From the NCBI RefSeq assembly GCF_003334815.1, contig NZ_QOWO01000006.1: a DNA stretch of 64,000 nt, one strand, 5' to 3'. Numbering within the stretch: position 1 is the stretch's first letter; every line of letters begins with the position of its first letter. The notes under the pieces were generated by a model. That model saw nothing but the letters and a program-made list of their open reading frames with translations, did not search any database and was not told where the DNA came from. Made by a program: the position numbers and the translations under genes. Below are positions 7,614 to 52,893 of the stretch, in pieces. This DNA is from Escherichia coli. GTDB lineage: Bacteria; Pseudomonadota; Gammaproteobacteria; Enterobacterales; Enterobacteriaceae.

Positions 7614-8651
7614 ATGAACGATGAAATGAAAGGTAAAAGCGGCAAGGTCAAAGTGATGTATGTCCGCAGTGATGATGATTCTGATAAACGTACCCACAAC
7701 CCGCGTACCGGGAAAGGGGGCGGGCGTCCAGGAAAATCTCGTGCTGACGGTGGCCGTCGCCCCGCCCGCGATGACAAACAGAGTCAGCCCCGTGACCGCA
7801 AGTGGGAAGATTCGCCGTGGCGCACGGTTTCCCGCGCGCCGGGTGATGAGACGCCGGAAAAGGCCGATCACGGTGGCATCAGTGGTAAAAGTTTTATTGA
7901 TCCGGAAGTGTTGCGTCGTCAGCGTGCGGAAGAAACCCGCGTCTACGGCGAAAATGCATGTCAGGCACTTTTCCAGAGCCGTCCGGAAGCGATTGTTCGC
8001 GCCTGGTTTATCCAGAGTGTAACGCCGCGTTTTAAAGAAGCTTTGCGCTGGATGGCAGCAAACCGCAAAGCGTACCATGTGGTGGATGAAGCGGAATTGA
8101 CAAAAGCGTCAGGCACGGAACATCACGGCGGCGTTTGCTTCTTGATCAAAAAGCGTAACGGTACAACCGTGCAGCAGTGGGTAAGCCAGGCAGGCGCGCA
8201 GGATTGCGTTCTGGCACTGGAAAACGAATCTAACCCGCATAACCTGGGTGGCATGATGCGCAGCTGCGCGCACTTCGGCGTGAAAGGTGTCGTGGTGCAG
8301 GATGCGGCACTGCTGGAGTCGGGGGCGGCTATCCGTACCGCAGAAGGCGGCGCAGAGCACGTTCAGCCGATTACTGGCGACAACATTGTTAACGTGCTGG
8401 ATGATTTCCGTCAGGCAGGTTACACCGTAGTGACCACTTCCAGCGAGCAGGGTAAACCGCTGTTCAAAACTAGTCTGCCAGCGAAAATGGTACTGGTGCT
8501 GGGTCAGGAATATGAAGGGTTACCGGATGCCGCACGCGATCCGAACGATCTGCGCGTGAAGATTGACGGTACGGGCAACGTTGCCGGGCTGAATATCTCT
8601 GTCGCAACCGGCGTTTTGCTTGGTGAATGGTGGCGTCAGAATAAAGCCTGA
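7614..8651 (+). CDS. yfiF: SpoU/TrmH-family RNA 2'-O-methyltransferase with basic low-complexity N-terminal extension
   Basis: Track ORF 7539..8651 trimmed to ATG 7614 ([14 protein letters not shown]..., 345 aa) matching YfiF as recalled; SPOUT-like C-terminal domain. Confidence 0.88.
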
Positions 8652-41926: not shown

Positions 41927-42027
41927 TGCCGGATGCGGCGTGAACGCCTTATCCGGCCTACAAAACTTTGCAAATTCAATATATTGCAATCTCCGTGTAG
42001 GCCTGATAAGCGTAGCGCATCAGGCAA
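41927..42027. repeat. REP/BIME palindromic element cluster
   Basis: Near-identical to the 11761-11870 element, including the conserved internal CAAATTCAATATATTGCA motif. Confidence 0.85.
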
Positions 42028-42085: not shown

Positions 42086-43280
42086 TCAAATCTGTCGTAA
42101 CTGCGCCTCAACATACAAATAGCCAATTCCCAGCACCTGTTGTGCGCGGCTTAATTGCCCAAAGCCAATTTGCGTCGCTTTCACGCTCGGTCCTTCGTCG
42201 CGGTCGAACGGGTTAAATCCTGTCTGGCGAATAATAGTATTAAGCCAGTTCTCACCAAAGGCACAACTGCGACCGTACAACCAAATCTGATTAATATTGA
42301 GGATGTTGAGGAAGTTATACAGACTCAAACCAATGGCATTGGCAGAGCGATCAACCCAGCTGGTGATCCACGGTTCTCCACTTTGCCAGGCAGCGATTAA
42401 CTGCGCTGTAGTCAGTTTTTCAGGATCAAGTTGAGTACTAACCGGTTGTGATTTTAGCCATACCCGCGCCTGTTTTTTTAATGCGCTTAACGAGGCGACG
42501 GTTTCCAGGCAGCCATAACGTCCACAGTCGCAGACGACGCCATCCGGATTAACGATGGTGTGACCAATCTGTCCGCTACCATACAAACTGCCGCGATAAA
42601 TTTGCTCGTTAATCACGAACGACGAGCCAATGCCGTAATCAACGTTGATCACGCAGAAATCCCGTTCCTGCGAATTATTTTGCCATTTCTCCGCCAGCGC
42701 CAGCATCACGCAGTCATTATCGACCATCACCCGAATGCCGAGCTTCTCTTCCAGCAGATATTTCACCTCCACCGGCGTTGTCCACGGCGCTTGCGGCATG
42801 GTTTGCGACACGCCGGTCACAGGATCAACCTGACCGTGGATTGCCAACGCCAGGTTGATGGTATGGTCCGGCCACAATTTACGGTGGCGATGCCAGCATT
42901 TTTTCGATTTCGGACAGCAGCGCCTGCGGCGTCGGTGCATCAATCTGTAAATACTCAAATTCACCTTTCGGACTTAAACAAGCATTAGCAACCTGACACT
43001 CAATACTGGTGGGCGTCACGTTCAGGCACAGCGTCCAGTCACCTTCCGGCGCAATCAGCCATGTACCGCTACTATGCCCGCGCGTCTGGCTTTCATCGTC
43101 AATATTCACCACCCGTTTTTCGCTTTCCAGTTCCTGCAAAATATTACTGACTGCCGGAATCGAAATTTGCGCCAGCCGGGCCAGCGTTGATTTATTGGCG
43201 CGCTTTTGCCGGTACAGCAGTTCCAGAATCACGCATTTGTTATGGTGGCGAATCTGTTGATTATTAATGCAGGCTCTCAT
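42086..43280 (-). pseudogene. yphH: ROK-family (NagC-like) regulator YphH, disrupted by +1 frameshift in a T6/A6 run
   Basis: Two overlapping minus-strand ORFs in different frames (42879..43286 N-terminal HTH part; 42086..42964 C-terminal part with CDCGRYGC zinc motif); they join in-frame if one T of the run at 42899-42904 is removed. Confidence 0.7.
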
Positions 43281-43397
43281 CTTCACTAAACCTTGTTTAG
43301 TTAATTGCGTGATTATTCCGCGAAAACATTGCCAGATTGTTCAATACACTGCCACAAATCTTTTAATTCAGTATGTCTTGTTAATATTGAGGGCACC

Positions 43398-46300
43398 ATG
43401 ACTCCAGTAAAAGTGTGGCAAGAGCGCGTTGAGATCCCGACCTATGAAACCGGGCCGCAGGATATACATCCCATGTTCCTGGAAAATCGCGTTTATCAGG
43501 GATCGTCCGGCGCGGTTTATCCCTACGGCGTGACCGATACGCTGAGCGAGCAGAAAACCCTGAAATCCTGGCAGGCGGTGTGGCTGGAAAACGACTACAT
43601 CAAAGTGATGATCCTGCCGGAACTGGGCGGTCGGGTGCATCGCGCGTGGGATAAAGTGAAACAGCGCGATTTTGTTTATCACAATGAAGTCATTAAACCT
43701 GCGCTGGTGGGGCTGCTGGGGCCGTGGATTTCCGGTGGGATTGAGTTTAACTGGCCGCAACATCATCGCCCGACCACCTTTATGCCCGTTGATTTCACCC
43801 TCGAAGCCCATGAAGACGGTGCACAGACGGTGTGGGTAGGCGAAACGGAGCCGATGCATGGTTTACAGGTGATGACAGGTTTCACCCTGCGCCCTGACCG
43901 GGCGGCGCTGGAAATCGCCAGCCGCGTCTATAACGGGAACGCCACGCCGCGTCATTTCTTGTGGTGGGCCAACCCGGCAGTGAAAGGGGGGGAAGGGCAT
44001 CAGAGCGTCTTCCCGCCGGATGTAACGGCGGTGTTTGATCACGGCAAACGGGCCGTCTCCGCTTTCCCCATCGCTACCGGCACTTACTACAAAGTGGACT
44101 ACTCCGCTGGAGTGGACATTTCTCGCTATAAAAATGTGCCTGTTCCAACCTCATATATGGCCGAAAAATCGCAGTACGATTTTGTCGGCGCGTGGTGTCA
44201 CGATGAAGATGGCGGTTTGCTGCACGTTGCCAACCACCATATTGCGCCAGGTAAAAAACAGTGGAGTTGGGGACACAGTGAATTTGGCCAGGCGTGGGAT
44301 AAGAGTCTGACCGACAATAACGGCCCGTATATCGAACTGATGACCGGTATTTTTGCCGATAACCAGCCCGATTTTACCTGGCTTGATGCTTACGAAGAGA
44401 AGCGTTTTGAGCAGTATTTCCTGCCTTATCATTCTTTGGGCATGGTGCAAAATGCCTCCCGCGATGCGGTGATAAAACTCCAGCGTAGTAAGCGGGGGAT
44501 TGAGTGGGGGCTGTATGCCATCTCTCCGTTGAACGGATACCGCCTGGCGATCCGCGAAATCGGTAAATGCAACGCGTTACTTGATGATGCCGTGGCACTG
44601 ATGCCTGCGACCGCCATCCAGGGCGTGTTGCACGGTATCAATCCTGAAAGGCTGACCATTGAGCTCTCCGATGCCGACGGCAATATTGTACTGAGTTATC
44701 AGGAACATCAGCCGCAAGCGTTGCCGTTACCGGACGTCGCCAAAGCGCCACTGGCAGCACAAGACATTACCAGTACAGATGAAGCCTGGTTTATCGGTCA
44801 GCATCTGGAGCAATATCATCACGCCAGCCGTTCACCGTTCGATTACTACCTGCGCGGCGTGGCGCTGGACCCGCTGGATTATCGCTGTAACCTGGCGCTG
44901 GCGATGCTGGAATATAACCGCGCAGATTTCCCGCAAGCGGTGGCGTATGCCACTCAGGCTCTGAAACGCGCACATTCGCTGAACAAAAATCCGCAGTGCG
45001 GACAGGCGAGTTTGATTCGCGCCAGTGCTTACGAACGTCAGGGACAATATCAACAAGCCGAAGAGGATTTCTGGCGTGCGGTCTGGAGCGGCAACAGCAA
45101 AGCCGGTGGCTATTATGGCCTGGCACGACTGGCGGCGCGTAATGGTAACTTCGACGCTGGTCTGGATTTTTGCCAACAAAGTCTTCGCGCCTGCCCAACC
45201 AATCAGGAAGTGCTTTGCCTGCATAATCTGCTGCTGGTGTTAAGTGGTCGTCAGGACAACGCGCGTGTGCAGCGCGAGAAACTGCTGCGCGATTATCCGC
45301 TGAACGCCACTCTGTGGTGGCTGAACTGGTTCGATGGTCGTAGCGAATCAGCTCTCGCGCAGTGGCGCGGTCTGTGTCAGGGACGCGACGTTAACGCCCT
45401 GATGACCGCCGGGCAACTGATTAACTGGGGAATGCCCACCCTGGCGGCAGAGATGCTGAACGCACTGGACTGCCAGCGCACGCTGCCGCTTTACCTGCAA
45501 GCCAGCTTGCTGCCGAAAGCCGAACGTGGCGAACTGGTCGCAAAAGCCATTGATGTCTTCCCGCAGTTTGTCCGTTTCCCGAATACGCTGGAAGAAGTGG
45601 CGGCGCTGGAGAGTATTGAAGAGTGCTGGTTTGCTCGCCATTTACTAGCTTGCTTCTACTACAACAAACGTAGCTACAACAAAGCCATTGCCTTTTGGCA
45701 ACGTTGCGTAGAGATGTCGCCGGAGTTTGCCGACGGCTGGCGCGGGTTAGCGATCCATGCGTGGAATAAGCAACACGATTATGAGCTGGCCGCGCGTTAT
45801 CTTGATAATGCTTATCAGCTTGCGCCGCAGGATGCACGTCTGCTTTTCGAACGGGATTTGCTGGATAAGTTAAGTGGAGCCACACCGGAGAAACGACTGG
45901 CGCGTCTGGAAAATAATCTGGAAATTGCGCTGAAACGCGACGACATGACCGCAGAACTGCTCAATTTGTGGCATCTCACGGGTCAGGCAGACAAAGCGGC
46001 GGACATTCTCGCCACGCGCAAATTCCACCCGTGGGAAGGCGGGGAAGGGAAGGTCACCAGTCAGTTTATCCTCAACCAGTTATTACGCGCCTGGCAGCAT
46101 CTTGATGCCAGACAGCCGCAGCAGGCCTGCGAACTGCTTCATGCCGCGCTGCATTATCCGGAGAATTTAAGCGAAGGCCGTTTACCGGGGCAAACTGATA
46201 ACGACATCTGGTTCTGGCAGGCGATATGCGCCAACGCGCAGGGCGATGAAACTGAAGCGACGCGTTGTTTACGTCTGGCGGCGACCGGCGATCGCACTAT

Positions 46301-46679
46301 TAACATTCACAGTTATTACAACGATCAGCCGGTTGATTATCTCTTCTGGCAAGGGATGGCGCTGCGACTGCTGGGCGAACAACAAACCGCACAGCAACTG
46401 TTTAGTGAAATGAAACAGTGGGCGCAAGAGATGGCGAAAACCAGTATCGAAGCGGATTTCTTTGCCGTCTCGCAACCTGACTTGTTGTCGCTGTATGGCG
46501 ATTTACAACAGCAGCATAAAGAAAAATGCCTGATGGTGGCGATGCTGGCGTCCGCGGGACTCGGGGAGGTTGCGCAATATGAGTCTGCTCGCGCTGAATT
46601 GACGGCGATTAATCCGGCTTGGCCGAAAGCGGCATTATTCACCACCGTGATGCCTTTTATTTTTAACCGCGTTCACTAA
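43398..46679 (+). CDS. yphG: large uncharacterised protein with C-terminal TPR-like repeats
   Basis: Track ORF 43305..46679; ATG 43398 after GAGGG gives about 1093 aa MTPVKVWQERVEIPTYETGPQDIH...; no signal peptide; helical repeat composition in the C-terminal half. Confidence 0.85.
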   Translation: MTPVKVWQERVEIPTYETGPQDIHPMFLENRVYQGSSGAVYPYGVTDTLSEQKTLKSWQAVWLENDYIKVMILPELGGRVHRAWDKVKQRDFVYHNEVIKPALVGLLGPWISGGIEFNWPQHHRPTTFMPVDFTLEAHEDGAQTVWVGETEPMHGLQVMTGFTLRPDRAALEIASRVYNGNATPRHFLWWANPAVKGGEGHQSVFPPDVTAVFDHGKRAVSAFPIATGTYYKVDYSAGVDISRYKNVPVPTSYMAEKSQYDFVGAWCHDEDGGLLHVANHHIAPGKKQWSWGHSEFGQAWDKSLTDNNGPYIELMTGIFADNQPDFTWLDAYEEKRFEQYFLPYHSLGMVQNASRDAVIKLQRSKRGIEWGLYAISPLNGYRLAIREIGKCNALLDDAVALMPATAIQGVLHGINPERLTIELSDADGNIVLSYQEHQPQALPLPDVAKAPLAAQDITSTDEAWFIGQHLEQYHHASRSPFDYYLRGVALDPLDYRCNLALAMLEYNRADFPQAVAYATQALKRAHSLNKNPQCGQASLIRASAYERQGQYQQAEEDFWRAVWSGNSKAGGYYGLARLAARNGNFDAGLDFCQQSLRACPTNQEVLCLHNLLLVLSGRQDNARVQREKLLRDYPLNATLWWLNWFDGRSESALAQWRGLCQGRDVNALMTAGQLINWGMPTLAAEMLNALDCQRTLPLYLQASLLPKAERGELVAKAIDVFPQFVRFPNTLEEVAALESIEECWFARHLLACFYYNKRSYNKAIAFWQRCVEMSPEFADGWRGLAIHAWNKQHDYELAARYLDNAYQLAPQDARLLFERDLLDKLSGATPEKRLARLENNLEIALKRDDMTAELLNLWHLTGQADKAADILATRKFHPWEGGEGKVTSQFILNQLLRAWQHLDARQPQQACELLHAALHYPENLSEGRLPGQTDNDIWFWQAICANAQGDETEATRCLRLAATGDRTINIHSYYNDQPVDYLFWQGMALRLLGEQQTAQQLFSEMKQWAQEMAKTSIEADFFAVSQPDLLSLYGDLQQQHKEKCLMVAMLASAGLGEVAQYESARAELTAINPAWPKAALFTTVMPFIFNRVH

Positions 46680-46775
46680 ACCCTATTAACTGTAATATTT
46701 GAGCGGCACGCGCTGCCGCTCATCACAAAATAATTAGAATAAGCCGTTGTTAATAAAAACCCTACAGGAGGCTCT

Positions 46776-47759
46776 ATGCCTACAAAAATGAGAACAACCC
46801 GTAATCTATTATTAATGGCTACGCTATTAGGTAGCGCACTATTTGCCAGGGCTGCGGAAAAAGAAATGACCATTGGCGCAATATACCTTGATACTCAGGG
46901 ATACTACGCTGGAGTGCGTCAGGGCGTTCAGGATGCGGCAAAAGATTCCTCAGTACAAGTTCAGTTAATAGAAACTAACGCCCAGGGTGATATTTCGAAA
47001 GAAAGTACCTTTGTTGATACCCTCGTGGCGCGTAATGTCGATGCCATTATTTTATCGGCAGTGTCTGAAAATGGCAGTAGCCGTACCGTTCGTCGCGCCA
47101 GTGAAGCGGGCATTCCGGTGATTTGCTACAACACCTGTATTAATCAAAAGGGGGTCGATAAATATGTCTCGGCGTATCTGGTCGGCGATCCGCTGGAATT
47201 TGGTAAAAAACTGGGTAACGCTGCCGCTGATTATTTTATTGCCAATAAAATTGACCAGCCGAAAATTGCCGTCATCAATTGCGAAGCCTTTGAAGTTTGT
47301 GTGCAGCGACGTAAAGGATTTGAAGAAGTTTTAAAATCCCGCGTTCCCGGCGCGCAAATTGTCGCTAATCAGGAAGGGACTGTTTTAGATAAAGCGATTT
47401 CCGTTGGTGAAAAACTAATTATCTCCACGCCGGATCTCAACGCCATTATGGGGGAATCGGGCGGTGCGACACTCGGCGCGGTAAAAGCGGTACGTAATCA
47501 AAATCAGGCCGGAAAAATTGCTGTTTTCGGTTCGGATATGACAACCGAAATTGCTCAGGAGCTGGAAAACAATCAGGTGCTGAAAGCGGTAGTGGATATT
47601 TCCGGTAAGAAAATGGGCAATGCTGTTTTCGCGCAAACATTGAAGGTTATCAATAAACAAGCCGACGGTGAAAAAGTGATTCAGGTGCCTATCGATCTCT
47701 ATACCAAAACGGAAGACGGTAAACAGTGGCTGGCAACGCACGTTGATGGTCTGCCCTAA
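46776..47759 (+). CDS. yphF: periplasmic sugar-binding protein of ABC transporter
   Basis: 327-aa ORF with signal peptide MPTKMRTTRNLLLMATLLGSALFARA; type-I periplasmic binding fold composition. Confidence 0.9.
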   Translation: MPTKMRTTRNLLLMATLLGSALFARAAEKEMTIGAIYLDTQGYYAGVRQGVQDAAKDSSVQVQLIETNAQGDISKESTFVDTLVARNVDAIILSAVSENGSSRTVRRASEAGIPVICYNTCINQKGVDKYVSAYLVGDPLEFGKKLGNAAADYFIANKIDQPKIAVINCEAFEVCVQRRKGFEEVLKSRVPGAQIVANQEGTVLDKAISVGEKLIISTPDLNAIMGESGGATLGAVKAVRNQNQAGKIAVFGSDMTTEIAQELENNQVLKAVVDISGKKMGNAVFAQTLKVINKQADGEKVIQVPIDLYTKTEDGKQWLATHVDGLP

Positions 47760-47781
47760 TCGCTGATTCGCAGAGGTCCCT

Positions 47782-49293
47782 ATGTTCACGGCAACAGAGG
47801 CAGTCCCGGTAGCAAAAGTGGTGGCAGGAAATAAGCGTTATCCCGGCGTCGTTGCGCTGGATAACGTTAACTTCACGCTCAATAAAGGCGAAGTTCGTGC
47901 GCTGTTAGGTAAAAACGGCGCGGGCAAATCGACTCTCATTCGAATGCTTACCGGCAGCGAACGCCCGGATAGCGGTGATATCTGGATTGGCGAGACGCGA
48001 CTGGAAGGTGACGAAGCTACGCTGACTCGCCGTGCCGCTGAACTGGGGGTGCGCGCGGTTTATCAGGAGTTAAGTCTGGTGGAAGGGCTGACAGTGGCGG
48101 AAAACCTCTGCCTCGGTCAGTGGCCCCGCCGCAACGGCATGATTGATTACCTGCAAATGGCGCAGGATGCCCAACGTTGCTTACAGGCGCTGGGCGTTGA
48201 CGTTAGTCCTGAACAACTTGTTTCAACGCTAAGCCCGGCGCAAAAGCAGCTGGTGGAAATTGCGCGGGTGATGAAGGGCGAGCCGCGCGTGGTCATTCTT
48301 GATGAACCTACCAGTTCGCTTGCGAGTGCGGAAGTTGAACTGGTGATCAGCGCGGTGAAAAAGATGTCGGCACTGGGCGTGGCGGTGATTTATGTCAGCC
48401 ACCGGATGGAAGAAATTCGCCGCATTGCCTCCTGTGCCACCGTTATGCGCGATGGTCAGGTGGCGGGCGATGTGATGCTCGAAAACACCTCCACGCATCA
48501 TATTGTGTCGCTGATGCTCGGGCGCGATCACGTTGATATTGCGCCGGTAGCCCCTCAGGAAATTGTGGATCAGGCCGTGCTGGAAGTCCGTGCGTTACGC
48601 CATAAGCCCAAGCTGGAGGATATCAGTTTTACGCTACGTCGTGGCGAAGTGCTCGGCATTGCTGGTCTGCTGGGGGCAGGGCGCAGTGAATTGCTGAAGG
48701 CGATTGTTGGGCTGGAGGAGTATGAACAGGGCGAAATTGTTATCAACGGCGAGAAAATCACGCGCCCCGATTACGGCGACATGCTGAAACGCGGCATTGG
48801 CTATACGCCAGAAAACCGCAAAGAAGCGGGGATCATTCCCTGGTTGGGCGTTGACGAAAATACAGTGCTGACCAATCGGCAAAAAATCAGCGCCAACGGT
48901 GTGCTGCAATGGTCCACCATCCGCCGCCTGACCGAAGAGGTGATGCAGCGGATGACGGTCAAGGCCGCCAGTAGCGAAACACCCATCGGCACGCTTTCTG
49001 GTGGCAATCAGCAAAAAGTGGTGATCGGTCGTTGGGTCTATGCTGCCAGCCAGATTTTGTTGCTCGACGAGCCAACGCGCGGCGTCGATATCGAAGCCAA
49101 ACAGCAGATTTACCGTATTGTCCGTGAGCTGGCTGCCGAAGGAAAAAGCGTGGTGTTTATCTCCAGTGAAGTGGAGGAGTTGCCGCTGGTGTGTGACCGC
49201 ATCCTGTTATTACAGCACGGCACGTTCTCGCAGGAGTTTCACGCTCCGGTCAATGTGGATGAGCTGATGTCCGCCATTCTGTCTGTGCACTGA
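47782..49293 (+). CDS. yphE: sugar ABC transporter ATP-binding protein (duplicated ABC domain)
   Basis: 503-aa ORF with Walker A GKNGAGKST, ABC signature LSGGNQQK and second Walker B LLLDEPTRGVD. Confidence 0.92.
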   Translation: MFTATEAVPVAKVVAGNKRYPGVVALDNVNFTLNKGEVRALLGKNGAGKSTLIRMLTGSERPDSGDIWIGETRLEGDEATLTRRAAELGVRAVYQELSLVEGLTVAENLCLGQWPRRNGMIDYLQMAQDAQRCLQALGVDVSPEQLVSTLSPAQKQLVEIARVMKGEPRVVILDEPTSSLASAEVELVISAVKKMSALGVAVIYVSHRMEEIRRIASCATVMRDGQVAGDVMLENTSTHHIVSLMLGRDHVDIAPVAPQEIVDQAVLEVRALRHKPKLEDISFTLRRGEVLGIAGLLGAGRSELLKAIVGLEEYEQGEIVINGEKITRPDYGDMLKRGIGYTPENRKEAGIIPWLGVDENTVLTNRQKISANGVLQWSTIRRLTEEVMQRMTVKAASSETPIGTLSGGNQQKVVIGRWVYAASQILLLDEPTRGVDIEAKQQIYRIVRELAAEGKSVVFISSEVEELPLVCDRILLLQHGTFSQEFHAPVNVDELMSAILSVH

Positions 49294-49317
49294 TGAATTT
49301 TACCGAGGAACCTGAAG

Positions 49318-50316
49318 ATGTCTGCTTCGTCATTACCATTGCCGCAGGGCAAGAGCGTCTCGCTCAAACAATTTGTCAGTCGCCATATTAATGAGATCGG
49401 TTTGCTGGTGGTGATTGCCATTCTTTATCTGGTCTTCTCCCTGAACGCGCCTGGCTTTATCTCATTGAATAACCAGATGAACGTGCTGCGCGATGCCGCC
49501 ACCATTGGGATTGCCGCCTGGGCGATGACGCTGATTATTATCTCCGGTGAAATTGATGTCAGCGTTGGGCCGATGGTGGCTTTTGTCTCGGTGTGCCTGG
49601 CATTTTTGCTGCAATTTGAAGTTCCGCTGGCGGTGGCGTGCCTGCTGGTGTTGCTGTTAGGCGCGCTGATGGGAACGCTGGCCGGGGTGCTGCGCGGCGT
49701 GTTTAATGTACCAAGTTTCGTTGCCACACTGGGGCTGTGGAGCGCCCTGCGCGGAATGGGGCTGTTTATGACGAACGCACTGCCAGTGCCGATTGATGAA
49801 AACGAGGTGCTGGACTGGCTGGGCGGACAATTTCTCGGTGTGCCGGTATCCGCGCTGATCATGATTGTGTTGTTTGCGCTGTTTGTGTTCATCAGCCGCA
49901 AAACCGCCTTCGGGCGCTCGGTTTTTGCCGTTGGCGGTAATGCTACGGCGGCGCAGTTGTGCGGCATCAACGTTCGTCGGGTGCGCATTCTTATCTTTAC
50001 CCTTTCGGGATTATTAGCGGCGGTGACCGGCATTTTGTTGGCGGCGCGCCTCGGTTCTGGTAACGCAGGTGCCGCAAACGGTCTGGAGTTTGACGTCATC
50101 GCCGCGGTCGTGGTCGGCGGTACGGCACTTTCCGGCGGTCGCGGTTCCCTGTTCGGTACATTGCTTGGTGTGCTGGTGATTACGCTAATCGGTAACGGTC
50201 TGGTGCTGCTCGGTATTAACTCCTTTTTCCAGCAGGTGGTACGCGGCGTCATCATCGTGGTGGCGGTGCTGGCGAATATCTTGCTGACCCAGCGAAGCAG
50301 TAAAGCGAAACGCTAA
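49318..50316 (+). CDS. yphD: sugar ABC transporter permease
   Basis: 332-aa hydrophobic ORF; RbsC/CUT2-like permease composition. Confidence 0.9.
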   Translation: MSASSLPLPQGKSVSLKQFVSRHINEIGLLVVIAILYLVFSLNAPGFISLNNQMNVLRDAATIGIAAWAMTLIIISGEIDVSVGPMVAFVSVCLAFLLQFEVPLAVACLLVLLLGALMGTLAGVLRGVFNVPSFVATLGLWSALRGMGLFMTNALPVPIDENEVLDWLGGQFLGVPVSALIMIVLFALFVFISRKTAFGRSVFAVGGNATAAQLCGINVRRVRILIFTLSGLLAAVTGILLAARLGSGNAGAANGLEFDVIAAVVVGGTALSGGRGSLFGTLLGVLVITLIGNGLVLLGINSFFQQVVRGVIIVVAVLANILLTQRSSKAKR

Positions 50317-50381
50317 ACCTTAACGCCCCTGGCGCGGGTGCGGCAGGGATGAAAATTAATCGTATTGTTAATGAGGGATTT

Positions 50382-51443
50382 ATGAAAACGATGCTGGCAG
50401 CTTATTTACCAGGAAATTCGACCGTCGATCTGCGGGAAGTTGCGGTGCCGACGCCGGGGATTAACCAGGTACTGATCAAAATGAAATCCTCCGGGATTTG
50501 CGGAAGCGATGTCCACTATATCTATCATCAACACCGTGCCACAGCGGCGGCACCCGATAAACCGTTATACCAGGGCTTTATCAACGGTCATGAACCGTGC
50601 GGGCAGATTGTGGCGATGGGGCAAGGCTGCCGCCATTTTAAAGAGGGCGACCGCGTGCTGGTGTATCACATTTCTGGCTGTGGTTTTTGCCCGAACTGCC
50701 GTCGCGGTTTTCCTATTTCTTGTACTGGCGAAGGAAAAGCGGCTTACGGCTGGCAGCGTGACGGCGGTCATGCCGAATACTTGCTGGCGGAAGAAAAAGA
50801 TCTGATCCTCCTGCCGGATGCGCTGAGCTACGAAGATGGTGCGTTTATCAGTTGCGGCGTTGGTACAGCGTATGAAGGAATTTTGCGCGGCGAAGTTTCC
50901 GGCAGTGATAACGTGCTGGTGGTCGGTCTGGGGCCAGTCGGCATGATGGCGATGATGCTGGCGAAAGGTCGCGGTGCAAAACGGATCATCGGCGTTGATA
51001 TGCTGCCGGAACGTCTGGCGATGGCAAAACAGTTAGGGGTGATGGATCACGGCTATTTAGCAACCACCGAAGGTCTGCCGCAGATTATCGCCGAACTCAC
51101 CCACGGTGGCGCGGATGTTGCGCTCGATTGTTCCGGTAATGCCGCAGGTCGCTTGCTGGCACTGCAATCCACCGCTGACTGGGGACGGGTGGTTTACATT
51201 GGTGAAACCGGAAAAGTGGAATTCGAGGTCAGCGCCGATCTGATGCACCATCAACGGCGGATTATCGGCTCCTGGGTGACCAGTCTGTTCCATATGGAAA
51301 AATGCGCCCATGATCTGACGGACTGGAAGCTGTGGCCGCGTAACGCCATTACCCATCGCTTCTCGCTGGAACAGGCAGGTGATGCCTATGCGCTGATGGC
51401 GAGCGGCAAATGCGGGAAAGTTGTGATTAACTTCCCGGATTAA
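50382..51443 (+). CDS. yphC: zinc-dependent medium-chain alcohol/polyol dehydrogenase
   Basis: Track ORF 50349..51443 trimmed to ATG 50382 after GAGGG (353 aa); GHEPCG and GxGxxG Rossmann motifs. Confidence 0.88.
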   Translation: MKTMLAAYLPGNSTVDLREVAVPTPGINQVLIKMKSSGICGSDVHYIYHQHRATAAAPDKPLYQGFINGHEPCGQIVAMGQGCRHFKEGDRVLVYHISGCGFCPNCRRGFPISCTGEGKAAYGWQRDGGHAEYLLAEEKDLILLPDALSYEDGAFISCGVGTAYEGILRGEVSGSDNVLVVGLGPVGMMAMMLAKGRGAKRIIGVDMLPERLAMAKQLGVMDHGYLATTEGLPQIIAELTHGGADVALDCSGNAAGRLLALQSTADWGRVVYIGETGKVEFEVSADLMHHQRRIIGSWVTSLFHMEKCAHDLTDWKLWPRNAITHRFSLEQAGDAYALMASGKCGKVVINFPD

Positions 51444-51454
51444 GGAGTTAGCGG

Positions 51455-52327
51455 ATGACCATCTATACCTTATCCCACGGGTCGCTAAAGCTGGACGTTT
51501 CTGACCAGGGCGGCGTAATCGAAGGCTTCTGGCGCGATACGACGCCGCTCTTACGTCCTGGTAAAAAAAGCGGTGTGGCAACCGATGCCTCATGTTTTCC
51601 GCTGGTGCCATTTGCAAACCGGGTGAGCGGCAATCGTTTTGTCTGGCAGGGGCGTGAGTATCAACTGCAACCGAATGTTGAGTGGGATGCGCACTATCTA
51701 CACGGCGATGGCTGGCTGGGCGAGTGGCAATGTGTCTCGCACAGCGATGATAGTTTGTGTCTGGTGTATGAACATCGCAGCGGTGTCTATCACTATCGGG
51801 TAAGTCAGGCGTTTCATTTAACGGCGGATACGCTGACGGTGACGCTCTCTGTCACCAATCAAGGGGCAGAGACGCTGCCATTTGGTACCGGCTGGCATCC
51901 TTATTTTCCGTTGTCGCCGCAAACGCGGATTCAGGCACAGGCGAGCGGTTACTGGCTGGAGCGGGAGCAGTGGCTGGCGGGTGAGTTTTGCGAGCAGCTA
52001 CCGCAGGAACTGGATTTTAACCAGCCCGCGCCGTTGCCGCGCCAGTGGGTGAACAATGGTTTTGCCGGATGGAATGGTCAGGCCCGCATCGAGCAGCCGC
52101 AGGAAGGTTATGCCATCATCATGGAAACGATGCCACCTGCACCGTGTTATTTCATCTTTGTTTCCGACCCTGCGTTTGATAAAGGATATGCGTTTGATTT
52201 CTTCTGTCTGGAACCGATGAGCCATGCGCCGGATGATCATCATCGCCCGGAAGGGGGTGATCTCATTGCGCTAGCACCAGGGGAATCAACAACTTCAGAG
52301 ATGTCGTTGCGGGTAGAGTGGCTGTAA
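51455..52327 (+). CDS. yphB: aldose 1-epimerase-family protein
   Basis: 290-aa ORF MTIYTLSHGSLKLDVSDQGGVIEGFWRD...; mutarotase-like. Confidence 0.88.
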   Translation: MTIYTLSHGSLKLDVSDQGGVIEGFWRDTTPLLRPGKKSGVATDASCFPLVPFANRVSGNRFVWQGREYQLQPNVEWDAHYLHGDGWLGEWQCVSHSDDSLCLVYEHRSGVYHYRVSQAFHLTADTLTVTLSVTNQGAETLPFGTGWHPYFPLSPQTRIQAQASGYWLEREQWLAGEFCEQLPQELDFNQPAPLPRQWVNNGFAGWNGQARIEQPQEGYAIIMETMPPAPCYFIFVSDPAFDKGYAFDFFCLEPMSHAPDDHHRPEGGDLIALAPGESTTSEMSLRVEWL

Positions 52328-52337
52328 TTTATTAAAT

Positions 52338-52367
52338 GCCGGATAAGGCGTTCACGCCGCATCCGGC
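52338..52367. repeat. single REP palindromic unit
   Basis: GCCGGATAAGGCGTTCACGCCGCATCCGGC between yphB and yphA. Confidence 0.75.
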
Positions 52368-52374
52368 ATCTTTC

Positions 52375-52797
52375 CTAACGCCGATCGAGAGAAATTGCCC
52401 CCGGCCCGGTAATTGCCAATAGCAAGAACGCGCCAGCGATACTGACATTCTTCCAGAAATTAATCATATTTGGCCCAACCGCATCGCCGGTCATATCCCA
52501 GTAATGGTGACCAATCACCGCCGTACCCAGCGTGTAGAAAATAAACAGCACCGCCAGCGGACGGGTGAAAAAGCCAAGCACGATTAATATCGCGGCGGGC
52601 ACTTCCATAACTACCGCAATAATCGCTGCCAGCATCGGCATTGGCGCGCCCAACGAGGCCATATATTGGACCGTACCGTCAAAGCCCATCATTTTGGGAA
52701 AACCAAAAATAATGAAAATTAAGACCACGGCGATACGGGCAATTAATAACAAAACGGGGCGGGCAGCTCCAAAATCAAAATAACGTAGTGTGTTCAT
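52375..52797 (-). CDS. yphA: DoxX-family inner membrane protein
   Basis: Track ORF 52375..52869 trimmed to ATG 52797 ([26 protein letters not shown]..., 140 aa). Confidence 0.85.
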
Positions 52798-52893
52798 AAC
52801 CAATCCCTTTGCAAGATAATGTGATTTAAACGTAATACACACTCTTGCACCTCGCCACGCCCCAGGCATTGAGATATTCGCTAATTATCCTGG

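Follow-up and report, generated by a model that had tools for sequence, protein, structure and literature searches.

Which compound does the yphH-yphGFEDCB-yphA locus of Escherichia coli handle, and what does its giant protein, YphG, contribute? We address these questions for a chromosomal copy of the locus that lies in a window of 64,000 nucleotides, meaning the whole stretch of DNA analyzed. The original prediction, made from this window, was of a complete but functionally unassigned sugar or polyol uptake and catabolism locus. The open reading frames and the RefSeq annotation bear out the predicted order, strands, and content of the eight genes (Table 1). The component identities also hold: a CUT2-type binding protein, a double ABC ATPase, a permease, a Zn dehydrogenase, a mutarotase-like protein, a cytoplasmic TPR protein of ~1100 aa, a ROK regulator, and a DoxX protein. 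The flanks are as described insofar as they consist of a ROK-type yphH and a convergent DoxX gene, yphA, with the qualification that yphH is broken in this window. The end coordinate, 52869, belongs only to the longest yphA open reading frame; the RefSeq start is at 52797 and yields a protein of 140 aa. The statement that no substrate has been assigned survives our literature searches, which found no published substrate and no functional study of the yph genes or of DUF5107; the yph genes surfaced only as entries of omics lists or under the label "uncharacterized." While the genes are already catalogued, the substrate hypothesis is now specific and testable. From gene neighborhoods in other genera, we propose that the locus imports a galactose-like, that is, galacto-configured, aldose that would be oxidized toward galactonate, a reading that we find plausible while stopping short of calling it probable.

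Table 1. Features of the yph locus, in coordinates of the window.
Feature	Position	Strand	Remarks
yphH, ROK-family regulator	42086..43280	-	Frameshifted pseudogene in the window
Palindrome ACTAAACCTTGTTTAGT	43285..43301	.	5 nt upstream of the yphH start codon; read from sequence
yphG	43398..46679	+	1093 aa, without signal peptide
YphG N-domain (DUF5107, aldose-1-epimerase fold)	43398-44432	+	Residues 1-345
YphG small beta domain			Residues 357-435
YphG TPR solenoid	44775-46673	+	Residues 460-1092
Weak terminator-like hairpin with T-run	46631..46664	+	Within the last yphG codons; -9.6 kcal/mol, z -2.5
GC-rich hairpin GAGCGGCAcgcgcTGCCGCTC	46700..46722	+	yphG-yphF spacer, without T-tract; -16 kcal/mol, z -4.0
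yphF, CUT2-type periplasmic sugar-binding protein	46776..47759	+	NCBIfam/PDB matches
yphE, fused double ABC ATPase	47782..49293	+	Like AraG, XylG, AlsA, MglA, all below equivalog cutoffs
yphD, single RbsC/AraH-type permease	49318..50316	+	NCBIfam matches
yphC, Zn-dependent MDR dehydrogenase, proposed aldose 1-dehydrogenase	50349..51443	+	Pfam
yphB, short-type aldose 1-epimerase	51455..52327	+	PDB 3NRE match
REP-type palindrome	52336..52369	.	Between convergent yphB and yphA; -22.9 kcal/mol, z -5.8
yphA, DoxX-family membrane protein	52375..52797	-	RefSeq start

The six co-directional genes from yphG to yphB are separated by 96, 22, 24, 32, and 11 nt, in that order, with a divergent yphH–yphG spacer of 117 nt and a convergent yphB–yphA spacer of 47 nt. 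The region is matched in 5426 of 5426 complete E. coli genomes, and in 5371 of them at least 80% of its length is covered, at 95–100% identity. Because it is present across complete genomes, we regard it as a core locus and not a chance arrangement. The locus is not, as had been supposed, complete: lactonase, dehydratase, kinase, and aldolase are all absent, and therefore any pathway must continue elsewhere. With respect to the lactonase, no SGL/SMP30- or amidohydrolase-type gene occurs within 42086-52869. Nor is the locus one co-conserved unit. Specifically, yphFEDCB is found without yphG in beta- and alphaproteobacteria, and yphG is found without yphFEDC in most taxa. The proposed co-occurrence of yphG with the ABC genes is real in part of the Enterobacterales, where the two are joined in three different gene orders, and fails elsewhere, where they are separate. 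The locus is best read as a chimera of two modules, yphFEDCB and yphH-yphG. Gene yphA is tied to it only loosely; homologs occur in just 4 of 80 yphG loci, at differing positions.

In the window, yphH is split into open reading frames at 42086-42964 and 42879-43286. The frameshift, a 1-bp insertion, lies in a run of six T residues (42899..42904; A6 on the coding strand) that is T5 elsewhere, including in strain WP5-S17, which aligns as otherwise identical. The reading frame breaks past residue 127, giving a product of 133 aa (127 native and 6 foreign residues) that retains the N-terminal HTH and loses the ROK sugar-binding domain, compared with 397 aa in the intact reference allele. An 80-mer spanning the site is identical in 1 of 5405 matching genomes, and yphH is annotated as "frameshifted" in that genome too. 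The T6 run may be a real mutation or a homopolymer sequencing error. Intact YphH would act as a ROK-type repressor of the locus; if the window sequence is correct, the truncation should leave yph derepressed.

The frameshift could instead be a sign of decay, with yph a silent or crumbling remnant that has no present function in E. coli. The frameshift here and in one other genome, the truncated YphG fragments present in some E. coli assemblies, and the fact that no phenotype or inducer is reported in the literature searched are all in keeping with this idea. We nonetheless judge it highly improbable, given the breadth and identity of conservation described above and given that the seven other open reading frames are intact in the window. 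Moreover, of the ABC-importer mutants followed up for defects in a screen of uropathogenic E. coli, one was in yphF, and the YphF protein is detected and regulated (PMC8753852). In that study, YphF is induced on levoglucosan together with MalE, XylF, MglA, UgpB, and YtfQ. We rejected levoglucosan as a specific YphF cue, as the joint rise with other sugar proteins looks like general catabolite derepression.

Clues to the substrate come from relatives of the transport module. Aquitalea and four rhizobial genera carry orthologous cassettes that lack yphG, and yphFEDCB is a transferable, horizontally shared five-gene cassette. In these bacteria, the cassettes adjoin genes 63–71% identical to E. 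coli dgoD, encoding D-galactonate dehydratase, and coupling to D-galactonate catabolic genes is evident in all five non-enterobacterial contexts examined. The neighbors also include genes for KDPGal aldolase, a lactonase (Aquitalea has an SGL gene), and a DgoR-like regulator. YphF orthologs in galactonate-linked cassettes are 55–69% identical. YphC is 83% identical to the Aquitalea cassette enzyme; the alignment begins at residue 11, and the true YphC start is probably Met12 (50382). YphB is nearer to the Aquitalea and rhizobial cassette epimerases (45–56%) than to YphB-like proteins of MFS-type yphG loci (31–35%). The Aquitalea dgoD, dgoA, and lactonase genes form a convergent operon with its own transporter, and adjacency to the cassette is therefore not co-transcription. 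In the rhizobial cassettes, the oxidoreductase is a GMC enzyme and not a homolog of YphC, and an SDR follows, not a kinase and an aldolase, a layout as compatible with a 6-deoxy sugar, for example D-fucose, as with galactose.

The notion is that YphF, YphE, and YphD would import a free reducing aldose, YphB would equilibrate its anomers, and YphC, with Zn and NAD(P), would oxidize C1, presumably in the direction of the aldonolactone. Ring opening would then give D-galactonate, which could be used by dgoK-A-D; E. coli possesses dgoRKADT, unlinked to yph. If so, yphFEDCB would be the missing "upper half" of the De Ley–Doudoroff route. D-Galactose is the most parsimonious candidate substrate, and D-fucose is the alternative. 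According to classical genetics, E. coli galK mutants fail to grow on galactose, and D-fucose is not known to be metabolized. If this is correct, the yph route must be silent under laboratory conditions, or the sugar must be a different one.

The cassette proteins themselves fit a sugar importer with attendant enzymes. YphF has a cleavable signal peptide (...ALFARA/AEKE, as read from the sequence) and matches the AlsB, MglB, LsrB, and RbsB profiles as well as ribose- and galactose-binding proteins in the PDB; its homologs carry PF13407 and PF00532 in precomputed annotations. YphE (503 aa) resembles AraG, XylG, and AlsA over its full length, and YphD resembles RbsC and AraH. YphB matches PDB 3NRE, its solved structure, over the full 290 residues (E 3e-209), with PF01263 assigned on its orthologs. 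Its YLHGDGW, GWHPYF, and CLEPM segments line up with the GalM-type segments NxHGG, NHxYFNL, and CLExQ, conserving a His...His...Glu set that we take to be the GalM catalytic residues.

It is YphC that keeps a polyol in play. The protein carries the Pfam domains ADH_N and ADH_zinc_N (E 9e-25 and 2e-26) and Glu_dehyd_C, and the Zn-ligand motifs GICGSD, GHE, and CGFCPNCRRGFPISC can be seen in it. The nearest named families are L-threonine 3-dehydrogenase, the scyllo-inosose 3-dehydrogenase IolM, and the xylitol and sorbitol dehydrogenases, relatives that also fit a polyol-type reaction, and some CUT2 systems carry polyols and inositols. YphFED might accordingly take up a polyol or cyclitol that YphC, as a polyol 2-dehydrogenase or inosose-type dehydrogenase, converts to a ketose or aldose for central metabolism. 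We consider such a route distinctly unlikely. By NCBIfam, YphC is not equivalent to Tdh, IolM, GatD, IdnD, or others, its best scores falling far under the curated cutoffs (171 versus 380 and 169 versus 450 bits); a kinase for the product is missing from the locus; and the orthologous cassettes are joined to DgoD orthologs, a DgoR-like regulator, and a lactonase. A mutarotase, furthermore, would have no role with a polyol. Since a mutarotase implies a reducing aldose and the orthologous cassettes are tied to D-galactonate dehydratase, the polyol half of the original prediction is disfavored, and an aldose remains the preferred substrate.

What, then, does YphG do? Its description as a giant TPR protein captures the solenoid and misses the N-terminal DUF5107 domain. 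The domain and structure prediction that had been suggested for it yields a confident model (pLDDT 94) in which a domain with an aldose-1-epimerase, or mutarotase, fold is combined with a TPR solenoid. Invariant His, Asp, Glu, Lys, and Arg residues are densely packed in the fold domain's sequence. Pfam places DUF5107 on residues 39–324 (E 3e-55), followed by TPR repeats. We rejected homology of the N-domain to GalM or YphB at the sequence level because the hhalign probabilities against the two alignments are insignificant (0.1% and 0.7%, respectively); only the likeness in fold stands. The segment "PYIELMTG..DNQPDF," with its invariant E313, is reminiscent of the "CLExQ..PD" strand of GalM, and the partial hhalign alignment brings H122/H123 close to the first His. 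Fold searches of AFDB50 and the PDB returned no functionally named relative, literature searches returned no characterized DUF5107/YphG-family member, and a search for BT4151 returned only a review.

YphG belongs to a large family that is conserved in Proteobacteria, Bacteroidota, and Firmicutes alike and keeps its full length at ~30% identity. Motifs conserved across phyla include HHR, DHxKR, HHxxPGKK, E313, and DNQPD, and FHPWEGGEG in the solenoid. One could imagine YphG as a non-enzymatic sugar sensor or scaffold, its mutarotase-fold domain binding the sugar and its solenoid contacting an AraC/ROK regulator or the transporter to tune expression or uptake. Dense, polar residue conservation across phyla and the retention of full length argue against this role, as does the existence of secreted family members; in addition, the partner regulator varies (AraC, ROK, LacI), which speaks against a specific regulator contact. 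We view a sensor or scaffold as quite unlikely.

Catalysis appears the better guess for YphG. The family's genes usually have as neighbors beta-galactosidases, a regulator of the AraC or ROK type, and a transporter for monosaccharides, and they are found in galactan- and galactoside-utilization loci of gut Bacteroidota and Firmicutes. Most likely, YphG would bind and convert a galactose-type sugar or small galactoside, and both yph modules are best read as dealing with a galacto-configured sugar. Distant family members are secreted and located in polysaccharide-utilization loci, a setting that suits an enzyme acting on glycans better than one acting on monosaccharides. One variant is that the transporter imports a galactosyl-polyol or a methyl- or glyceryl-galactoside, as Mgl does; YphG, as a new type of glycoside hydrolase in the cytoplasm whose catalytic domain is a supersandwich, would free galactose, YphB would convert the freed anomer, and YphC would oxidize galactose or the freed polyol aglycone. 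We hold this small-galactoside scheme to be unlikely. Separately, in one Lachnospiraceae locus a YphG-like gene accompanies a YtfQ-like transporter that has two permeases; as this is a single case, we retained galactofuranose as a sub-hypothesis only.

A bolder possibility, which we rate as less likely than not, is that YphG founds an uncharacterized enzyme class in which the TPR solenoid would complete a mutarotase-fold active site, catalyzing an as yet unassigned galactose or galactoside step in Enterobacterales, gut Bacteroidota, and Firmicutes and, with yphFEDCB, forming a hidden oxidative galactose route into dgo in E. coli. Examples of such a class would be a new glycoside-hydrolase family, a converter of ring forms or anomers, or the galactonolactonase that had lacked an assigned sequence. 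YphG as the missing lactonase would complement the SGL lactonase (E. coli versus Aquitalea), but most YphG-like loci have no dehydrogenase, and we give this option low weight.

The spacers hold several candidate control elements. The ACTAAACCTTGTTTAGT motif is kept in the yphH–yphG spacers of Escherichia, Enterobacter, Citrobacter, and Cedecea loci; judged from sequence, it is possibly a YphH operator, or merely part of the yphH ribosome-binding region. The second half-site of the conserved TTGCGTGA motif is poor, and we therefore make no CRP claim. A promoter scan gave 9 matches versus 9.4 in shuffled sequence, hence no excess, and terminator-like sites mostly fall within genes. None of 200 shuffles is as stable as the GAGCGGCAcgcgcTGCCGCTC hairpin, a possible RNA-stability or processing element setting yphG apart from the cassette. 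The palindrome between yphB and yphA is presumably a REP element.

By 2019, no galactose-specific genes had been assigned to the steps from galactose to galactonate in the De Ley–Doudoroff route (PMC6927180). If yphFEDCB encodes these steps, a role is found for six E. coli "y" genes, and enterobacteria gain a second, oxidative galactose route. The YphG reaction, once found, would annotate thousands of gut-microbiome genes. Should the hypothesis fail, yph remains an ordinary sugar ABC operon.

How does the locus compare with known systems? Intact YphH is like the ROK repressors NagC, Mlc, and XylR in its HTH, ROK domain, and CxCGxxGC zinc motif, and in being transcribed divergently from its presumed target. 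It differs from NagC and Mlc in its partial NCBIfam matches, which lie far under the equivalog scores (112 versus 650 and 107 versus 530 bits) and do not make it an ortholog of either, in belonging to a small separate clade whose linker is atypical (PMC4288165), and in being truncated in the window. The aldose 1-epimerases GalM, YeaD (hexose-6-phosphate mutarotase), B. subtilis YoxA (3MWX), and YihR of the sulfoquinovose operon offer a parallel for the YphG N-domain, but that domain has no significant profile relation to GalM or YphB, bears its own conserved motifs, and leads into a beta domain and a TPR solenoid of 630 residues. A smaller counterpart is PDB 5CD6 (BDI_1685 of Parabacteroides distasonis, a structural-genomics "TPR-domain containing protein"), which at 580 aa is about half the length of YphG and 21% identical; neither its PDB title nor our literature search yielded a function or ligand.

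The proposed yph logic, aldose to lactone to D-galactonate to dgo, is that of the De Ley–Doudoroff pathway, in which galactose 1-dehydrogenase and a lactonase precede DgoD, DgoK, and DgoA, and to which we count the AraA/AraB arabinose/galactose dehydrogenase–lactonase pair. The differences are that YphC is an MDR Zn-dehydrogenase, unlike the known galactose dehydrogenase types, and that E. coli yph has no lactonase and is unlinked to dgo. On the transport side, YphFED has the same architecture as the E. coli CUT2 importers MglBAC, AraFGH, XylFGH, AlsBAC, RbsBAC, and YtfQRT-YjfF, in which a type-I binding protein is combined with two ATPase domains fused in one chain and a permease of the RbsC type. 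It differs from those of known substrate in that no component attains a curated equivalog score (64 versus 335 bits for YphF, 456 versus 689 for YphE, and 227 versus 398 for YphD), and we rejected naming by NCBIfam because no yph-locus protein reaches such a cutoff. Finally, just as arabinose, xylose, and galactose are served by ABC-plus-MFS pairs (MFS partners GalP, AraE, and XylE), Serratia, Enterobacter sp., and Budvicia couple the yph ABC transporter with a sugar porter resembling XylE.

The yph genes are already catalogued and so do not represent a new feature. They lie in E. coli chromosomal DNA, and their 10.8-kb region is matched in 5426 of 5426 complete E. coli genomes at 95-100% identity, chromosomally in every case, with at least 80% of the region covered in 5371 of the 5426. 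We took gene coordinates from the ORF list and from the RefSeq annotation of a near-identical strain. These coordinates and the gaps between the six co-directional genes from yphG to yphB (96, 22, 24, 32, and 11 nt) bear out the order and content given in the original prediction. One boundary moves: position 52869, given as the end of yphA, is the longest-ORF start, while the RefSeq start is 52797. The observation is real, with a frameshift in yphH as an important caveat. Elsewhere in the window, a 429-aa ORF (40638-41927, minus strand) lies antisense over the whole of glyA (40629-41888, plus strand) and, glyA being highly codon-biased, is probably a shadow ORF.

Genes of the yph locus and predicted hairpins at the yphG/yphF junction (window coordinates)
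Feature	Coordinates	Strand or location	Source or prediction
yphH	42086-43280	-	ORF list and RefSeq
yphG	43398-46679	+	ORF list and RefSeq
yphF	46776-47759	+	ORF list and RefSeq
yphE	47782-49293	+	ORF list and RefSeq
yphD	49318-50316	+	ORF list and RefSeq
yphC	50349-51443	+	ORF list and RefSeq
yphB	51455-52327	+	ORF list and RefSeq
yphA	52375-52797	-	ORF list and RefSeq
Weak terminator-like hairpin and T-run	46631-46664	between yphG and yphF	predicted
Stable GC hairpin without T-tract	46700-46722	between yphG and yphF	-16 kcal/mol, z -4.0

We found no published functional assignment of the yph locus, and no paper was listed for DUF5107 (PF17128); where yph genes are mentioned, it is solely in tables of omics data, as markers for PCR, or as explicitly uncharacterised. 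One study of uropathogenic E. coli included a yphF mutant in the set of ABC-importer mutants that it followed up. YphF is induced on levoglucosan together with MalE, XylF, MglA, and others (PMC8753852). These data do show that YphF protein is made; the rise, being shared with MalE, XylF, and MglA, looks like general catabolite derepression. In NCBIfam, none of the yph-locus proteins reaches an equivalog cut-off. The description of an unassigned sugar locus stands.

The proteins encoded by yphFEDCB, here called the cassette, fall into recognizable classes. YphF (a type-I binding protein with a signal peptide), YphE (a fused double ATPase), and YphD (an RbsC-like permease) constitute, by sequence, a CUT2-type importer. 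YphC, an MDR Zn-dehydrogenase, has an extra Pfam match to Glu_dehyd_C. Its Aquitalea orthologue (354 aa, 83% identity) aligns to the 364-aa RefSeq protein from residue 11, and RefSeq probably places the start 11 codons too early (segment 50349-50381). YphB corresponds to the solved structure 3NRE, and the His, His, and Glu motifs of GalM-type proteins align with its own.

The locus had also been viewed as one co-conserved unit, a view that fails in both directions: yphFEDCB occurs without yphG, and yphG occurs without yphFEDC. Specifically, among the scanned loci, yphFEDC lies beside yphG only in the closest Enterobacterales, and Citrobacter werkmanii, Cedecea, Hafnia, Enterobacter sp. Ag1, and Aeromonas carry yphH-yphG-MFS-yphB-like instead. 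YphF orthologues (55-69% identity) are present without yphG in Aquitalea, Rhizobium, Agrobacterium, Shinella, and Mangrovicella. There, cassettes are ordered either SBP-ATPase-permease-ZnADH-epimerase, as in E. coli, or SBP-ATPase-permease-epimerase-GMC oxidoreductase. Identity between the E. coli and Aquitalea cassette proteins is 83% for YphC and 56% for YphB; E. coli YphB shares 45-47% with the rhizobial cassette epimerases, versus 31-35% with the YphB-like proteins of MFS-type enterobacterial loci. On this evidence, the cassette stands as a separate unit, which is joined to yphH-yphG in some Enterobacterales. Three joined orders exist: Escherichia has G-FEDCB, Enterobacter sp. and Budvicia have G-FEDCB-MFS, and Serratia has G-MFS-FEDCB.

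YphG belongs to a large uncharacterised family, which we flag here. Residues 39-324 match Pfam DUF5107, and TPR matches are weak. A search of 1.84 billion representatives returned 5842 relatives with E<=1e-3, of which 1152 reach E<=1e-30. The one relative of YphG with a solved structure is the unannotated 5CD6. The architecture of about 1100 aa is conserved down to roughly 30% identity. A confident AlphaFold2 model (pLDDT 94.3, pTM 0.92) contains a beta-sandwich (1-345), a small beta domain (357-435), and an alpha-solenoid (460-1092). In an alignment of 60 sequences, mean column identity is 39%; 20 positions are invariant and about 80 nearly so. These cluster in N-domain motifs (GPWISGGIEFNWPQHHRP, FLWWAN, DHxKR, HVADHHISPGKKxWTWG, and PYIELMxGxxxDNQPDF) and, in the solenoid, are concentrated in one loop, FHPWEGGEG.

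The recurring theme of YphG neighborhoods is galactose and galactans. Our scan, with one genome per species, covered 80 loci from Enterobacterales, Aeromonas, Photobacterium, Bacteroidota, and Firmicutes. Neighbors were counted for the 79 with a YphG homologue, and the counts are lower bounds because ORFs were called and clustered in this analysis itself. An MFS sugar porter or CUT2 ABC component lies within four genes in at least 51 of 79 loci; the MFS protein, which passes the sugar-porter subfamily model (best named match XylE), is adjacent and co-directional in at least 29. AraC or ROK regulators occur within two genes in at least 50/79. A GH2 gene related to the BT4151/BT4156 exo-beta-1,4-galactosidases, a GH35 gene, or a GH36-like gene accompanies at least 37/79, and GalM or YphB-type mutarotases at least 19/79.

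Distant homologues (27-33% identity) have signal peptides and reside in SusC/SusD loci with GH16, sulfatase, and GH42-like genes. For example, in L083 (6547-9876) and L084 (10001-13303), secreted DUF5107/TPR homologues of 27-28% identity sit between GH16 genes and sulfatases in SusC/SusD polysaccharide-utilisation loci, a context that suggests that they act on sulfated or beta-linked galactans. In L086 (10001-15487), a signal-peptide DUF5107 homologue is followed by AP_endonuc_2 (a xylose-isomerase-like TIM barrel) and a GFO/IDH/MocA oxidoreductase, a pair typical of 3-keto-glycoside pathways. In four Firmicutes loci (L022, L029, L074, L075), the gene directly 3' of the YphG homologue encodes a conserved protein, about 137-154 aa long, that weakly resembles ureidoglycolate lyase (cupin-like). 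In a Lachnospiraceae contig (L079, 431-6489), two permeases, an ATPase, and a YtfQ-like binding protein (228 bits versus a cut-off of 510), together arranged like the galactofuranose transporter, adjoin AraC and a YphG-like gene. A homologue of yphA (DoxX; 75-76% identity) lies directly downstream of yphH in Cedecea neteri (L010) and Enterobacter sp. Ag1 (L016), immediately before the matched region, near 8450/9944, unlike in Escherichia, where yphA adjoins yphB; overall, it is near the locus in only 4 of 80 cases, at differing positions.

YphH has been termed "a third uncharacterized ROK repressor" (PMC4288165) and is on a 2022 list of transcription factors with unknown function (PMC9308461). 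It is the presumed repressor of the yph locus, and a conserved palindrome at 43285-43301 is its candidate operator. In the window, yphH has a T6 run (42899-42904) versus T5 in other strains. The product, 127 native and 6 foreign residues before a stop, keeps the helix-turn-helix and loses the ROK sugar-binding domain and the CxCGxxGC motif; derepression is thus predicted. The same 80-mer at the T-run occurs in 1 of 5405 matching genomes, where yphH is annotated "frameshifted". The T6 run may be a homopolymer assembly error. Nearby, hcaD (52894-54111) is an intact 405-aa ORF in the window; in WP5-S17-ESBL-10 and 52F4, the two complete genomes that most resemble it, hcaD is annotated as a frameshifted pseudogene. 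Thus, indel differences from these nearest relatives affect at least two genes. The short gaps from yphF to yphB are consistent with a single operon, and the hairpins at the yphG/yphF junction mean that yphG and the cassette may be expressed separately or at different levels. Promoter-scan matches did not exceed chance expectation. Between the convergent yphB and yphA lies a palindrome (GCCGGATAAGGCGTTCACGCCGCATCCGGC; 52336-52369; -22.9 kcal/mol, z -5.8) that we take to be a REP-type element.

A link to galactonate comes from cassettes outside the enterobacteria. In 5/5 such contexts, a gene for a 382-aa enolase-superfamily protein follows or faces the cassette. This protein has 63-71% full-length identity to E. 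coli DgoD, the D-galactonate dehydratase, and 3/3 scanned copies pass the galactonate-dehydratase equivalog (649-729 bits versus a cut-off of 311). The Aquitalea context also has a KDPGal aldolase (285 bits versus 207), an SDR, and an SGL-type lactonase, and rhizobial operons have a divergent GntR/FCD regulator with 37% identity to DgoR. In E. coli K-12, dgoRKADT is at a separate locus. With a mutarotase gene inside the cassette and galactonate-dehydratase genes next to its orthologues, the earlier designation "polyol" is not upheld. Nor is "complete", as the yph locus (42086-52869) contains no lactonase gene.

The hypothesis is that YphFED would import a galacto-configured reducing aldose, D-galactose being most parsimonious; YphB would provide the correct anomer, YphC would oxidize C1, the lactone would then open, and D-galactonate would enter the dgo pathway. 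We hold this mechanism as a whole tentatively, at somewhat less than an even chance. D-fucose is a real alternative substrate because rhizobial operons continue with an SDR, not a kinase and aldolase. Against the galactonate route, YphC has polyol or threonine dehydrogenases as its named relatives. Moreover, galK mutants of E. coli are Gal-negative, so the route is silent or the sugar is different. We infer that the YphG module is independent, older, and likewise tied to galactose. Candidate YphG reactions would be small-galactoside cleavage, ring-form or anomer conversion, and lactone opening; the secreted relatives better fit a glycan-active than a monosaccharide enzyme. Our analysis turns an "unknown" locus into a specific, cheaply testable hypothesis. 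According to a 2019 paper, neither a dehydrogenase nor a lactonase specific for galactose had been identified in the De Ley-Doudoroff route (PMC6927180). With a mutarotase beside an oxidoreductase, upstream of a galactonate dehydratase, the cassettes show the gene arrangement that one would expect of that route's upper half.
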